Shown here: positions 55,553 to 64,000 of the stretch, piece by piece
Position numbering within the stretch: the stretch's first letter is position 1
Layout of the letters: each line of letters begins with the position of its first letter
IMG/VR virus record: IMGVR_UViG_3300022602_002120
Coordinates: 64,001 to 128,000 of that record
Origin: a virus
Reading direction: 5' to 3' (one strand)
Length of the DNA stretch: 64,000 bases
Program-made: the position numbers and the translations under genes
Notes under the pieces: model-generated
What the model was told of the DNA's origin: nothing
Databases searched by the model: none
The model's input: the letters and a program-made list of their open reading frames with translations, nothing else

Positions 55553-55878
55553 TTCCAGCTCTCGTCGTGATGATCAAAAAATCTTAAACAATAGTCTACG
55601 TATTCGCTTTCACTCAGGTCAGCATAGAAGCGTACCTGTTTGAACCAATCTATGGTATTACTATCAAAATCAAAATCAAGTTTAATGCTATTGCGTTCAA
55701 CCCAAGCATATTTGTCTGTTTGACTGAATTCTTTTGCTGCTTGGAAGTATAGAGCATCATTGCCCCAACCATTGTTGTGAATTTCGTTTATATGACTTCT
55801 ATATGCGAATAAGCGCACACGATGGGGTCGTTCAAACCGCCATGTTGGCTTTGATTGGCGGGTGATAGTTGTATCCAT
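55549..55878 (-). CDS. Hypothetical protein
   Basis: 109-aa ORF with an ATGA overlap. Confidence 0.55.
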
Positions 55879-56689
55879 CTAGTCTAAAGTCCTCTATAGT
55901 AAAGTTATTGATATCTTTTACATCAGGGTTAATCCACAATGTGGGAAGAGGTAATGGTTCACGGCTTAACTGTTCTTTTACCTGCTCTACGTGATCAGAA
56001 TATATGTGTGCGTCGCCTAGTGTGTGAACAAACTCGCCTACCCCTAAACCACATACCTGTGCTATCATATGAGTTAATAGTGAGTAGCTTGCGATGTTAA
56101 AAGGTACACCTAAGAACATATCGCAACTACGCTGATACATCTGACACGACAACTTATTATCAGCACTTACGTAGAACTGTGCAAAACAATGACAGGGAGG
56201 TAAGGCCATTTGATCTAACTCACCCGGGTTCCACGCTGTGATAATATGCCTGCGGCCATATGGATCATCTTGGATACCACGTATCAGCGTAGCAATTTGA
56301 TCTACTGCTGATCGTTTACCTGGACCCATATAACTGACCCAATCTCGCCACTGTACACCGTAGACACGACCTAGGTCACCTTGGTATTTGGCTTTAGGAA
56401 TCCAATAAGGAGCAAGAGCATTGGGTGTCCAAATAGTAGTTTTACCTTCAGGGTCGCCGTGGGTAATTTCTGCTAGTCTGCGTTCATCACCCGAACCTTC
56501 AATGAACCATAACAGTTCACCTAAACAGGCCTTGAAAGCCAGTTTCTTAGTAGTCACAGCTGGAAAGCCCTTAGATAGATCGTAGCGTTGTTGCATACCA
56601 AATACCCCAATGGTACCTACACCCGTGCGATCATCACGTACTTCACCGTTCTTAAGAACGAATTCTAATGCGTCAAGATAAGTTTTCAT
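55832..56689 (-). CDS. thyA: Thymidylate synthase
   Basis: DRTGVGT, MALPPCH (catalytic Cys), [18 protein letters not shown] (dUMP-specifying Asn), GDAHIY. Confidence 0.97.
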
Positions 56690-56695
56690 TTTATT

Positions 56696-56724
56696 ATTAT
56701 AACAGAATTAAGGTAGTCTGTCAA
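56696..56724 (-). promoter_or_regulatory. Perfect sigma70 promoter TTGACA-N17-TATAAT upstream of thyA
   Basis: -35 at 56724-56719, -10 at 56701-56696; only 6 nt separate the -10 from the ATG. Confidence 0.85.
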
Positions 56725-58558: not shown

Positions 58559-58852
58559 TTAGAAGTAATCTTCGGGATTGATCTGCGGAAGATAAAGACT
58601 AAAGTAAGTAGCTTCGCTGACCAGTTCAAAGGCAACTTTAGTCTGGCGATCAATGATCTTACCGCCCGGAGTACGTGCTAGATCAATATCGCCTAGAAAA
58701 AAACGACCTTCTAGGTTTTCGTAGATCCAATTAGATAGAGTGTTAGGCGTAACATAACTGAGAAAAACTACCTGTTCAAAATGAGGCGGACACCAACTTA
58801 ACTGTCGTAGTCCGTGTACATTTAAGGGATTAACTTCGCCGTGTTTAAGCAT
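58559..58852 (-). CDS. Hypothetical protein
   Basis: 97-aa ORF in the packed run. Confidence 0.6.
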   Translation of the reverse strand: MLKHGEVNPLNVHGLRQLSWCPPHFEQVVFLSYVTPNTLSNWIYENLEGRFFLGDIDLARTPGGKIIDRQTKVAFELVSEATYFSLYLPQINPEDYF

Positions 58853-59471
58853 TAATAGTCTTTCTAATTAGTTCTGCCCACAGTTCATGAGCTCGTTCAT
58901 TGGGATGAAATCCATCTTCTATATACAGTTTATGATCTTGACTTAGTTCAAATAACCCGTTGCGATCAACGTCTGTGAATATCCACTGACTAAAATCAAT
59001 TTGAAGGTCTAAGTATTCAAATCCCAATCCATATACATCTTCCCAAACATTCATATAGCTCATAAACTTATATTTAATGTTCTGAGCTTGTAGATAACTT
59101 TGTAAGCTGATTATACGTATTAAGCTGTTAAACACACGTTCACGTTGCCCAATATCTATGCTGAGGTTTTTATAAGCAGCTTGTTCGTTGTGTAGGTAGT
59201 GTATGCCAAAGTTATTAACAGATTTAAATCCTGTAGATTGAAGATAGACTTTTTCCTCTACAGCATAATCTAGGCGTTCCAATCCAGTCCACATTACCAA
59301 CACTAGGTCATATGAGTTTTCACTTAACTCTGATATAGTGCTGTCGCATATCCATTGGTTGCCTGCGGCATGCTGGGCTAGGTTTTTAACCGCATCAGTG
59401 CCTAGCAGGTATGGCCAAGTTAGATATGGACTAGGGGCTGTAAAACTACAGCCGTTAGTTAATATCTTCAC
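58845..59471 (-). CDS. SGNH/GDSL-like protein (paralog outside the cluster)
   Basis: NGCSFT, NLAQHAAGN, WTGLER, DGFHPNERAH. Confidence 0.65.
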   Translation of the reverse strand: MKILTNGCSFTAPSPYLTWPYLLGTDAVKNLAQHAAGNQWICDSTISELSENSYDLVLVMWTGLERLDYAVEEKVYLQSTGFKSVNNFGIHYLHNEQAAYKNLSIDIGQRERVFNSLIRIISLQSYLQAQNIKYKFMSYMNVWEDVYGLGFEYLDLQIDFSQWIFTDVDRNGLFELSQDHKLYIEDGFHPNERAHELWAELIRKTINA

Positions 59472-59950: not shown

Positions 59951-60147
59951 TCTTTAAATTTTGATAGCCAAACAGTCTTTAACTTCCAATCTAAAATACC
60001 CCACCAATTCCAGCGGTAGTAGATAGCCCAACCTCTACGACTACGAATCACAGGTCGCCAACAATCTGGAACTAGGACTAACTTGTCTTTTGATACAGGA
60101 GTACGATATATGCCCGTACCGTCTTTATTTCGATTTTGATAGATCAT
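59938..60147 (-). CDS. Hypothetical Trp/Arg-rich protein
   Basis: 69-aa ORF overlapping its neighbours. Confidence 0.45.
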   Translation of the reverse strand: MIYQNRNKDGTGIYRTPVSKDKLVLVPDCWRPVIRSRRGWAIYYRWNWWGILDWKLKTVWLSKFKDWEI

Positions 60148-60538
60148 TTCTATTATCCTCTGGATAGGGCACAGGACGCCATCCTAAACTAGCTAGATCT
60201 GCGCGAATTTCTTCTGTTACTGTGCTTTCACTAACATAACCATGTCTCTCCATATGACGTATATCATACTCAGTATCGTAATCTATACCGCCACCCATAC
60301 CACTACAGTACCAACTTAGGTAATCACCTTTACCCTGTAGATCTGCCACAACACCACCCGCACTGCGCCAAGTTACTGCCCAAAGCTCATTTGTAAGCAC
60401 AGGCCATACTTCACTTTTCTGCCACTGCATATTACACATAGCCGCATACAAGTTCTGCGCATATGAATCAAGCTTGACCTTTTCAAGTATCATATGGCTC
60501 CGAGACATGTCGTCAGCCATATCATGCTTAATCAACAT
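60125..60538 (-). CDS. Hypothetical protein (ATG at 60538 preferred over the GTG at 60577)
   Basis: The ATG at 60538 overlaps the stop region of the upstream 45-aa ORF. Confidence 0.6.
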   Translation of the reverse strand: MLIKHDMADDMSRSHMILEKVKLDSYAQNLYAAMCNMQWQKSEVWPVLTNELWAVTWRSAGGVVADLQGKGDYLSWYCSGMGGGIDYDTEYDIRHMERHGYVSESTVTEEIRADLASLGWRPVPYPEDNRNDLSKSK

Positions 60539-60665
60539 TCTTGTGTTTGCGCTTTCTTGTATACTTGGTACGATCACGTTCTACCTTAGCTTTAAATGGC
60601 AAATCCTTGTTAAACAATGCCTGATGTCTACGTATATTCATTTTAATTTTCTTGGTATTTTTCAT
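60528..60665 (-). CDS. ArfA-like (alternative ribosome rescue factor-like) 45-aa basic protein (not in the ORF track)
   Basis: MKNTKKIKMNIRRHQALFNKDLPFKAKVERDRTKYTRKRKHKNVD; aligns by eye with the E. coli ArfA core; lies directly after a consensus promoter. Confidence 0.6.
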   Translation of the reverse strand: MKNTKKIKMNIRRHQALFNKDLPFKAKVERDRTKYTRKRKHKNVD

Positions 60666-60672
60666 TGTAGTA

Positions 60673-60701
60673 ATTATACAGTCAATGAATCAAAATGTCA
60701 A
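60673..60701 (-). promoter_or_regulatory. Perfect sigma70 promoter TTGACA-N17-TATAAT
   Basis: -35 at 60701-60696 (contains the TGA stop of the upstream gene), -10 at 60678-60673; 7 nt to the ATG at 60665. Confidence 0.85.
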
Positions 60702-62474: not shown

Positions 62475-62769
62475 ATTGATCCTCTGCTAGCTTATTAAAA
62501 AGGTTAAGGGCAACGGCTGTTTCTTTAACCTTCTCGACACCTGCCAATACTTCTTGTAATTGTTTGATGGTTTGGTTCAAATGTTTCCCATCTAAATTAC
62601 GCACCCAGAGTGAGGCTTTGATAATACGAGCAAGGTCGATTTCTTCCCCAACTTTAATATCGTCGGAGTCGATATCGTACGCATGTTCTAAACCAACCAT
62701 TAGAGCAAGTTCATCGCGACTTAATTCGCAGAAGAACTTGTTCTCGTCTACCTTAGCAATAATTTTCAT
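62461..62769 (-). CDS. Hypothetical protein
   Basis: 102-aa ORF; TAATG overlap with the upstream gene. Confidence 0.55.
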   Translation of the reverse strand: MKIIAKVDENKFFCELSRDELALMVGLEHAYDIDSDDIKVGEEIDLARIIKASLWVRNLDGKHLNQTIKQLQEVLAGVEKVKETAVALNLFNKLAEDQYDKV

Positions 62770-64000
62770 TATGCGTATGCTTTCTTTTTCTCAAATTCAT
62801 AGTAAGCAGTAATACCAAATGTTGCTTCTTCTTTGTTACCACCGTGTACTACAAACAGTGTGTCGCAGTAGTCTGGATCACCCCAACTGTCGCCGTAGTA
62901 ACCATCTGTAAACATCACAAACTTTTTAGGAACAATGTCGTTATCACGCATGTATTCCCAGTTACACATAAACATAGTACCGCCACCGCCACCTGGTTCC
63001 CATTCCATGATGTCATCTAAGTTTTCAGGAGTGAACACTTGTGCGTTATACACACTAGTATCAAATGACCAAAGGTGTAAACGGAAACTTGTGTAAATTT
63101 CCATAATACCTTTAATTTCACTTAGAATATCACGCAACATTTCATCTGTCATAGAACCTGATGCGTCAATTGACACACAGATATCAATTTCTTTGTCAAA
63201 GTCGCTACCTGGCATAACAGCATCCATGTCCCAACCTTTACGTGACGCACGTTGCCATGTGTAGTCTGTACGCATTGTGCTTTGGATTTGTTGCTGTAAC
63301 AAACTACGCCAATCTAGTTGAGGCGCTGTAAGATCTTTAATTAATCTACGTACACCTGCTGGCAATTGACCTGCTTGGCAAGTCTGAGCCGCAGCCATCA
63401 TAGCTTCTTTGATCTCGTCACGGATCTGTTTCTTTTCTTCTTCAGAAAGTTTAGGACGACCTTTGCCATCTTTGTCGCTAGGTGTGCTACCACCATCTTC
63501 ATCACCATCGCCGTCGCTGTCACCTTCACCGTCTAAGTGTTCGTCGATTAGCATTTTTTCTAAGTCATCAATGCTGATTTTCTTAGCATTTTTCATTAGG
63601 TCATCATATACTTCTTCAGCTGACCAACCTTTATATTTGCTATCAAACAATCCAACAGGAATCTTTTCACCAATGCGTTGATCCAACAAGTCTTGATTTA
63701 CACAGTAATCGTCGGCAATATTCCAAATACGTGGGTCACGTTCACCTCTACGTCCCATGTGGTCGTATACACAGTGTAGTACCTCATGCCCCATTAAAAA
63801 TTCTACTTGTTTACTAGGCATTTTGTTAATAAATTCACTGTTATAGTAAAACATACGCCCGTCAGTAGCCGCAGTAGGACACCATTCATCTGCGTTTACT
63901 AATTTTAAACGTGTTGCTAGGTTACCAAAAAATGGCGCCTTAAGTAATAGCGCAATTCTAGCAGTAATAAGTTTTTCACGTACTTTAGCATCAGTTTGTG
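62769..64000 (-). CDS. DUF2201-type metallopeptidase plus VWA-like domain protein, 5'-truncated by the window edge
   Basis: The frame is open to the window end (..APFFGNLATRL..TAATDGRM). It has HEVLH (HExxH), an acidic linker, and a MIDAS-like VSIDASGS plus GGGGT. Confidence 0.8.
   Translation of the reverse strand, partial: QTDAKVREKLITARIALLLKAPFFGNLATRLKLVNADEWCPTAATDGRMFYYNSEFINKMPSKQVEFLMGHEVLHCVYDHMGRRGERDPRIWNIADDYCVNQDLLDQRIGEKIPVGLFDSKYKGWSAEEVYDDLMKNAKKISIDDLEKMLIDEHLDGEGDSDGDGDEDGGSTPSDKDGKGRPKLSEEEKKQIRDEIKEAMMAAAQTCQAGQLPAGVRRLIKDLTAPQLDWRSLLQQQIQSTMRTDYTWQRASRKGWDMDAVMPGSDFDKEIDICVSIDASGSMTDEMLRDILSEIKGIMEIYTSFRLHLWSFDTSVYNAQVFTPENLDDIMEWEPGGGGGTMFMCNWEYMRDNDIVPKKFVMFTDGYYGDSWGDPDYCDTLFVVHGGNKEEATFGITAYYEFEKKKAYA

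Follow-up and report, generated by a model that had tools for sequence, protein, structure and literature searches.

A 45-residue peptide encoded in the uncultured virus record IMGVR_UViG_3300022602_002120 is very probably related by descent to ArfA, a ribosome rescue factor of Escherichia coli, through the phage protein family DUF7230 (PF23876 in Pfam). We analyzed bases 64001 to 128000 of this 188.8-kb IMG/VR record, a 64-kb stretch referred to below as the window, and the peptide gene lies on its minus strand at 60528..60665 (-), running from an ATG start to a TAA stop (stop included). Ribosome rescue is essential in bacteria. ArfA-type factors are kept silent by tmRNA (PMC6881298). Sequence comparison points instead to a widespread, truncated and tail-less ArfA derivative of phages, often set for immediate-early leaderless expression. 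For the window peptide itself we favor, with some reserve, the role of a constitutive, immediate-early rescue factor that depends on host release factor 2 (RF2).

A gene under purifying selection

A preliminary description of the window, which worked by eye, had placed an ArfA-like gene at this site, and the open reading frame (ORF) is indeed there and includes the core that was quoted. The gene is real and subject to purifying selection. Gene callers annotate identical copies on four other metagenome contigs, near-identical copies are likewise called in other assemblies, and the peptide has 30 close homologues (identity, 69 to 98%) as well as 30 representatives of distant clusters. Against relatives at about 91 to 95% protein identity, the proportion of synonymous differences (pS) is about 0.62 and that of nonsynonymous differences (pN) 0.035 to 0.04, which corresponds to a dN/dS of about 0.03; the range over relatives is 0.03 to 0.06, with synonymous sites near saturation. 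Relatives more distant than these have saturated synonymous sites and still keep the protein. A scan of IMG/VR returned 69 viral loci, and every ORF among them is 42 to 58 amino acids (aa) long and ends 3 to 12 residues past a Lys-His motif.

Homology of DUF7230 to ArfA

We consider homology between DUF7230 and ArfA very likely on the strength of profile comparisons and bridging sequences. When a profile of 25 diverse family members was searched against 177,635 distinct PDB sequences, six matches were obtained at an E value of ≤10, all of them ArfA chains of ribosome rescue complexes (E, 0.0034 to 0.0087; aligned residues, 8 to 44). The signal needed the diverse alignment, for a single-sequence phmmer search of PDB with the ORF found no match and a profile of close homologues alone found just dynactin, at an E value of 0.8. 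Aligning 57 DUF7230 sequences with 20 ArfA sequences (13 enterobacterial and 7 from phages, the whole of the ArfA set) in hhalign gave a probability of 84%, a P value of 7.8e-6, and a score of 28.1. None of 200 column-shuffled ArfA alignments reached that score (mean, 8.0; standard deviation, 2.0; maximum, 17.3), and reversed ArfA scored 6.7; the low controls indicate that Lys/Arg composition is not the cause of the similarity.

Three bridges link the two families. In Pseudoalteromonas phage J2-1, the 51-aa protein ATN93434.1, which bears an ArfA annotation, exceeds the cut-offs of both PF03889, the ArfA family (41.3 bits against 25.5), and PF23876 (28.6 bits against 27), and it matches the window ORF with an E value of 7e-9 and E. 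coli ArfA with one of 1e-10; a homologue search with this protein returned itself alone. Likewise, g10 of Citromicrobium phage RXM (ArfA) matches an ORF of Acinetobacter phage 133 (DUF7230) with an E value of 2e-8, and the IMG/VR locus L085 (ArfA, 43.3 bits) matches L074 (DUF7230, 28.2 bits) with one of 5e-7. BLASTP aligns the window ORF directly with E. coli ArfA (E, 9e-4). In every alignment, including this one and the bridges, the same three-residue gap stands opposite KGK of ArfA. A neighbor cluster in the ESM Atlas carries PF03889, which is a lead and no more. In effect, DUF7230 would be a form of ArfA that has lost three residues from the tunnel segment and has had its N terminus remodeled.

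The window ORF belongs to DUF7230 as a borderline member and does not formally belong to PF03889. Against PF23876, for which the cut-off is 27, it reaches 25.9 bits (E, 1.1e-5), and it further matches PHROGs 6310 and 2701, neither of which has an assigned function. Precomputed PF23876 domains are present on 24 of the 30 close homologues, and 23 of 25 diverse relatives match this model at an E value of ≤10; just 3 of the 25 touch PF03889, weakly (best E, 0.011), and no match to PF03889 was found anywhere in the phage record. The idea of a bS21-like or other ribosomal protein was rejected since Pfam gave no such match. The likeness to ArfA claimed in the preliminary description was a by-eye alignment and so only a lead, although the E. 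coli segment quoted for it agrees with the real sequence from NC_000913; it now stands on the profile search, the hhalign comparison with its shuffles, and the bridging sequences, but not on a direct ArfA match of the ORF to a hidden Markov model (HMM).

Correspondence with functional residues of ArfA

In cryo-EM structures of ribosome-bound ArfA with RF2, residues 21 to 30 of ArfA lie in the A site and residues 31 to 48 fill the mRNA tunnel (PMC5378476). Leu19, Leu24, and Phe25 make up the binding patch for Trp319 in the switch loop of RF2, the backbone of residues 25 to 29 extends the sheet of RF2 domain 2 at residues 213 to 217, and in the inactive ArfA-RF2 complex (Structure I), A1492 and A1493 are sandwiched between Pro23 and A1913 (PMC5378476). 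Truncation at Asn47 leaves ArfA active, while shorter versions are inactive; the A18T mutant is inactive too, evidence that ArfA can bind without activating (PMC5378476). A Lys-His pair that contacts U534 is common to ArfA and BrfA (PMC6881298).

Three segments may be distinguished in the window peptide. Residues 1 to 14 (60624..60665 (-)) form a basic N-terminal segment with conserved Arg12 and His14, and the HMM alignment reaches residue 8. Residues 15 to 29, QALFNKDLPFKAKVE (60579..60623 (-)), would be the RF2-contact region according to the alignments, the conservation, and the published contacts (PMC5378476). Residues 30 to 45, RDRTKYTRKRKHKNVD (60531..60578 (-)), make up a basic segment that appears equivalent to the tunnel part of ArfA, residues 31 to 48 (PMC5378476, PMC6881298); 8 of the 14 residues from R30 to N43 are basic. 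Position by position, Ala16 aligns with Ala18 of ArfA, Leu17 with Leu19, Leu22/Pro23 with Pro23/Leu24 in swapped order, Phe24 with Phe25, FKAKV with FRQRV (residues 25 to 29, the strand that pairs with RF2 213 to 217), Glu29 with Glu30, Tyr35 with Tyr39, Arg37-Lys38 with Arg41-Lys42, Lys40-His41 with Lys44-His45, and Asn43 with Asn47. Counterparts of the Trp319 patch and of the RF2 strand (F-K/R-x-K/R-V) are thus present in the family at the sequence level, with Pro and Leu swapped.

The most conserved columns of the family coincide, in these alignments, with the published contacts of ArfA to RF2 and the mRNA tunnel. Among 57 aligned sequences, Leu17 is kept in 53, Phe18 in 49, Leu22 in 42, Pro23 in 53, Phe24 in 49 (with Tyr in 7 more), Lys or Arg at position 27 in all 57, Val28 in 43, Glu29 in 49, Tyr35 in 52, Arg37 in all 57, and Lys40 and His41 in 55 each; Asp21 is also among the most conserved positions. 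An AlphaFold 2 (AF2) model of the monomer is essentially unfolded (pLDDT, 68; one 4-residue helix), as expected if the peptide takes on structure solely when bound to the ribosome.

Relation to known rescue factors

The closest systems are, in order, ArfA, the annotated ArfA proteins of phages, and then BrfA and ArfT as functional analogues. E. coli ArfA (YhdL; PF03889, RF2-dependent) is likewise a small unfolded peptide without GGQ. Beyond the profile-level homology, it shares with the window peptide the core A-L-(L/F)...D-(P,L)-F-(R/K)-x-(R/K)-V-E and the basic tail Y-x-R-K-x-K-H, and its minimal active form (residues 1 to 47) is of about the same length. The window ORF differs in falling below PF03889, in lacking KGKGS with a deletion of three residues, in reading DLPF, and in its altered N-terminal 14 residues. 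Its gene is phage-borne and predicted to be leaderless behind a consensus promoter. It was also right to say, as had been proposed, that the peptide ends shortly past the basic motif and lacks a regulatory tail: its end is equivalent to ArfA residue 49, two residues past the equivalent of Asn47, and no 3' hairpin was found at the gene (structure z score, -0.43). A true stop codon and the absence of such an RNase III hairpin mean that the non-stop/RNase III/tmRNA feedback on bacterial arfA is absent here.

Canonical ArfA of phages (J2-1, RXM g10, HTVC027P gp30, Arash gp99c, pf16, and the IMG/VR loci L079 to L085) is phage-borne and tail-less too, and the J2-1 protein ends in VERD(K/R)TKY(R/T)RK.KHKN as the window ORF does. 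In contrast to the window ORF, these proteins pass PF03889, most keep KGKGSY, and their genes have Shine-Dalgarno leaders; they are rarer in IMG/VR and are known from annotation alone. The core of DUF7230 (gp293 of Pseudomonas jumbo phage PA5oct and the ORF of Acinetobacter phage 133; PHROGs 6310 and 2701) has the same C-terminal half, whereas the N-terminal half of the window peptide reads R-x-H-x-A-L-F-x-x-D-L-P-F and that of the core K-K-R-N-P-I-A...P-A-F.

BrfA of Bacillus subtilis and ArfT of Francisella resemble the window peptide in concept, with a basic C terminus in the mRNA tunnel and a strand added to the sheet of RF2 domain 2. A resemblance to BrfA had been noted at the end of the peptide. 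It holds for the Lys-His motif, which contacts U534, is kept in 55 of 57 family sequences, and is shared by ArfA itself (PMC6881298), but no HMM links the ORF to BrfA; this comparison covers Pfam and NCBIfam searches and not a pairwise alignment with BrfA/YqkK. BrfA further differs in N-terminal helices that touch H69 and H71 of 23S rRNA and have no counterpart in ArfA (PMC6881298).

Promoter and predicted leaderless expression

The peptide gene has its own promoter, as the preliminary description had it, with all 12 positions of the sigma-70 consensus (TTGACA-17-TATAAT) between 60701 and 60673. The -35 hexamer TTGACA (60696..60701 (-)) contains the TGA stop (60700-60698) of the upstream 153-aa ORF, and relatives have TTGACA, TTGACT, or TTGACC at this place with different upstream flanks. 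The -10 hexamer TATAAT (60673..60678 (-)) follows after a 17-nucleotide (nt) spacer and is kept in relatives. The window has only two perfect sites of this kind; the expected number is 0.16, and in 100 shuffles a count of two or more never arose. From the -10 box to the ATG there are 7 nt (tactaca), without a Shine-Dalgarno sequence. Because of this short gap and the missing Shine-Dalgarno sequence, a leaderless transcript is predicted: judged by spacing, transcription should start 7 to 8 nt past the -10 box, at 60665..60666 (-), leaving a leader of 0 to 1 nt.

This arrangement persists among relatives. The 13 closest viral loci all have TTGACA or TTGACT, 17 nt, TATAAT, 7 or 9 nt, and ATG, even where sequences further upstream are unrelated. 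A promoter matching at least 10 of 12 positions is present in 42 of 52 non-redundant family loci, and the -10 box ends 6 to 9 nt before the ATG in 36. When every non-redundant ORF of 40 aa or more in these loci is counted, 50 of 1,372 have the same layout; about 36 of these 50 are the DUF7230 gene, leaving about 14 of some 1,320 others. The leaderless layout is therefore strongly enriched for the DUF7230 gene family-wide, and the earlier claim of an early, nearly leaderless gene is borne out as a prediction from sequence and extends to the family as a trait. A few members have ordinary Shine-Dalgarno leaders instead, as do the canonical phage ArfA genes.

Within the phage, the layout is not unique to the peptide gene, an idea that we rejected since 5 of 13 near-consensus promoters in the record have a leaderless layout. 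The other, early-looking genes behind near-perfect TTGAC(A/T)-17-TATAAT sites with a gap of 6 to 7 nt include, by eye, a thymidylate-synthase-like, a DnaJ-like, and a 5'-3' exonuclease-like gene; such sites are the promoter at 56696-56724 (-) of the window with the ORF at 55832-56689 (-), and sites at record positions 179516, 135685, and 28508 (-). Leaderless immediate-early expression seems to be a habit of this phage lineage, as far as promoter spacing tells. In the promoter of the peptide gene, the spacer holds a second TTGACT, which creates two weaker, overlapping promoter-like sites of 9/12 (60657-60693 (-)); one has a -10 box that runs into the peptide ORF (60657), and the inner TTGACT is kept in the closest relatives.

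Distribution in phages and bacteria

Published annotations of ArfA in phages include RXM g10 (PMC8953757) and gp30 of pelagiphage HTVC027P (PMC12753301). By tblastn with E. coli ArfA, canonical ArfA was found in Salmonella phage Arash, Pseudomonas phage pf16, J2-1, RXM, and others. Diverse alignments were too variable for locus scans. Comparably narrow patterns returned 7 canonical ArfA loci (L079 to L085) from IMG/VR versus the 69 of DUF7230 type. Six full canonical ORFs from the IMG/VR loci are 36 to 52 aa long, and three annotated coding sequences are 51, 60, and 74 aa. The phage ArfA sequences examined end shortly past the basic motif, without the ArfA regulatory tail.

Two of the canonical genes have escaped correct annotation. 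In Arash, gp99c (OQ632216.1, L006:1417-1641) is annotated as "ribosomal protein L2" and is actually a canonical ArfA (PF03889, 67.8 bits), translation of which probably begins at the Met of codon 28, preceded by a good Shine-Dalgarno sequence. Phage pf16 (KU873925.1, L007:1495-1638 (+)) has an unannotated 47-aa canonical ArfA (PF03889, 72.2 bits) with a GTG start, opposite the annotated hypothetical gene pf16_199.

Cultured carriers of DUF7230 are PA5oct (gp293, 59.7 bits) and Acinetobacter phage 133 (48.8 bits). The 36-aa ORF of the latter (NC_015250.1, L093:1159-1269 (+)) is unannotated, has a TTG start, and is located in the early region of this T4-like phage, close to srd and flanked by Acj133p022 and p021. 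Named phages gave no match at an E value of ≤1e-3 to a megablast search with the locus or a tblastn search with the ORF; weak tblastn matches to them (E, ≤10) required Pfam confirmation. Twort-like Staphylococcus phages have weak DUF7230 matches of 17.8 to 21.4 bits, under the 27-bit cut-off. The Staphylococcus phage protein shares 13 of the 16 final residues with the window ORF, while the front halves are little alike. A conserved tail and a divergent front are what one would expect of a C terminus that contacts universal 16S rRNA and a front half that contacts a host-specific protein.

The narrow scan of bacterial genomes returned a single locus, in a Paceibacterota metagenome-assembled genome (MAG) (OZ244939.1, L003:3896-4072 (+)). 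There, a 58-aa ORF with the shared tail VERDRTKYNRKQKHRN (DUF7230, 22.4 bits) lies between uvrA and uvrC; it may be a stray gene of phage origin or an ORF that arose by chance. None of 300 further Paceibacterota genomes yielded the family, and the idea of a rescue factor of the Candidate Phyla Radiation (CPR) was therefore dropped. No neighboring gene is conserved across the family loci, which fits a factor acting with host components. A literature search found no paper that mentions DUF7230 and none on an experimentally tested phage rescue factor, and the omics paper on PA5oct has nothing on gp293.

Proposed function and alternatives

If the peptide works as ArfA does, host RNA polymerase would transcribe its gene right after infection from the consensus sigma-70 promoter, yielding a leaderless mRNA. 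The 45-residue, intrinsically unfolded product would bind 70S ribosomes stalled at the 3' ends of cleaved (non-stop) mRNAs and insert its basic C-terminal half (R30 to N43, with Tyr35, Arg37, and Lys40-His41) into the vacant mRNA tunnel. The middle of the peptide (Leu17, Leu22/Pro23, Phe24, and FKAKV) would dock host RF2 in the A site, and docking would drive the GGQ loop of RF2 into the peptidyl-transferase center, so that the nascent peptide is released and the ribosome freed. Since the peptide has no GGQ and the record no RF-1 domain, any release activity would need a host factor. Without the shut-off by tmRNA and RNase III, the peptide would be active as soon as it is made, and ribosomes would stay available for phage translation while mRNAs are cut, be it by phage-induced decay of host mRNA or by RNase-type defense toxins. 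We infer this benefit, evasion of defense included, from what is known of ArfA and of T4-type infection.

Several observations weigh against this reading. The similarity to ArfA spans about 30 residues of a Lys/Arg-rich peptide. The window ORF itself falls just under the DUF7230 cut-off and covers profile positions 15 to 34 only, and the profile search against ArfA that the preliminary description had suggested as a check came back empty for it, with nothing at an E value of ≤10 for PF03889 (gathering threshold, 25.5 bits) and no matching model in NCBIfam. KGKGS, invariant in the ArfA sequences aligned here, is replaced by RDRTKY with the three-residue deletion, and "DPLF" has become "DLPF"; either change could alter the geometry in the A site and tunnel. 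The N-terminal 14 residues are not clearly alignable, and their counterpart in ArfA is the minidomain that holds RF2 open. Ala16 does stand in the column of ArfA Ala18, as had been pointed out, but this column is not conserved across the family (of 57 sequences, Ala in 23, Val in 17, Met in 4, and Glu in 4), though A18T inactivates ArfA. RF-dependent rescue factors are poorly compatible across species (PMC6881298). ArfA is confined to some beta- and gammaproteobacteria (PMC6881298), and the family appears to occur in Staphylococcus phages, the hosts of which lie outside this range. Given the loss of KGKGS, the DLPF order, the unalignable N terminus, Val in the Ala18 column, and the poor function across species, we rate RF2-dependent rescue as probable and no higher.

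The strongest competitor, though an unlikely one, is a blocker: by an ArfA-like occupation of tunnel and A site in vacant or non-stop ribosomes, the peptide would keep tmRNA-SmpB out, sparing phage peptides from degradation tags, or damp host translation, with no productive activation of a release factor. The tunnel segment is the best conserved and best aligned part of the peptide, whereas the RF2-activating N-terminal minidomain is not clearly kept and the Ala18 position varies; ArfA A18T binds without activation, and SmpB, ArfA, and ArfB compete for the same empty tunnel (PMC5378476). Yet the RF2-contact residues (Leu17, Leu22, Phe24, and F-K-x-K-V) are as conserved as those of the tunnel, and a mere plug would not need them. 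Plugged ribosomes would also stay stalled with peptidyl-tRNA, at a cost to the translation capacity of the phage, and canonical, truncated ArfA genes that are presumably active occur in phages as well.

RF-dependent rescue may also have another partner or scope, acting through RF1 or either release factor, as ArfT does, or on ribosomes stalled at specific phage or leaderless transcripts. Members of the family come from phages that infect Gram-negative as well as Gram-positive bacteria and diverge in their N-terminal halves, the choice of release factor can differ, as ArfT illustrates (PMC6881298), and the peptide gene and several other early genes of the phage are predicted to be leaderless. 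We regard this as improbable because the patch that gives ArfA its RF2 specificity (Leu19/Leu24/Phe25 versus Trp319) has counterparts here and nothing points to RF1.

More improbable still is a small basic nucleic-acid-binding protein, such as a DNA or RNA chaperone or an internal virion protein, with a convergent or compositional likeness to ArfA. The peptide is short and rich in Lys and Arg, the gene lies among structural genes in Twort-like Staphylococcus phages, and the window ORF misses PF03889; but the shuffle and reversal controls exclude composition, ArfA chains were the sole matches in PDB, the three independent bridges carry the same indel, and the conserved positions include specific hydrophobic and aromatic residues beyond charge. 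Finally, it is scarcely credible that the short ORF is incidental and the promoter serves the downstream 137-aa gene (60125..60538 (-)), for although the ORF has just 45 codons and its end is overlapped by that gene, its amino acids are kept at a dN/dS of 0.03 to 0.06 while synonymous sites saturate, the 69 viral loci have differing downstream genes, and the distance from the ATG to the -10 box is fixed at 6 to 9 nt.

Implications for phage infection

If RF2-dependent rescue is the function, a Pfam family of unknown function gains one that can be tested, and unregulated rescue factors are far commoner in phages than the few "ArfA" annotations imply (69 versus 7 IMG/VR loci). It would also tie ribosome rescue to the phage-host conflict over mRNA cleavage, that is, to toxin RNases, decay of host mRNA, and non-stop products made by defense. 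A broader reading, which we offer tentatively and think somewhat less likely than not to hold in full, is that DUF7230 constitutes a widespread phage class of constitutive, ArfA-derived rescue peptides that counter RNase-type abortive infection in general, beyond the bacterial range of ArfA. Such a class might extend from T4-like and jumbo phages of proteobacteria to Twort-like Staphylococcus phages with an altered RF-facing half, and its product might be the first of infection in one large lineage. The promoter, leaderless ATG, and 45 to 55 codons would make an unusually clean natural case of leaderless immediate-early expression, and the cultured members (PA5oct gp293, the Acinetobacter phage 133 ORF, and the genes of Twort-like phages) offer direct experimental handles.

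Source record and neighboring genes

The source is an uncultured T4-like jumbo phage. The record has a G+C content of 38% and an estimated completeness of about 53% (CheckV), and it carries a T4 gp23-type major capsid gene (E, 2e-95). In these 188.8 kb, about 53% of the genome, we found no tRNA or tmRNA and no RegB, RF-1 domain, or Pth; Rfam gave no match between 55 and 64 kb of the window.

The ATG of the downstream 137-aa gene, at 60538, overlaps the final 11 nt of the peptide gene, an arrangement that makes co-transcription and translational coupling probable. This gene is called in the identical contigs, is kept only in the closest 8 loci, and has no Pfam or PHROG match. Between 58.5 and 62.8 kb, one neighbor is a 208-aa SGNH/GDSL-like protein (DUF6071; E, 5.7e-8) at 58845-59471 (-) in the same minus-strand early cluster; the others have no Pfam or PHROG function, and the neighborhood offers no hint as to the role of the peptide. 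Further upstream, at 62769-63998 (-), lies a DUF2201 metallopeptidase and VWA-like protein (Pfam E values, 2e-40 and 2e-13), the best matches of which (45 to 49%) are jumbo phage proteins, among them those of Sinorhizobium phage Phosso and Pseudomonas phage PA5oct. PHROG 1314 and several GenBank records call this protein "HNH endonuclease" or "homing endonuclease," labels that seem to be an annotation error passed from record to record.

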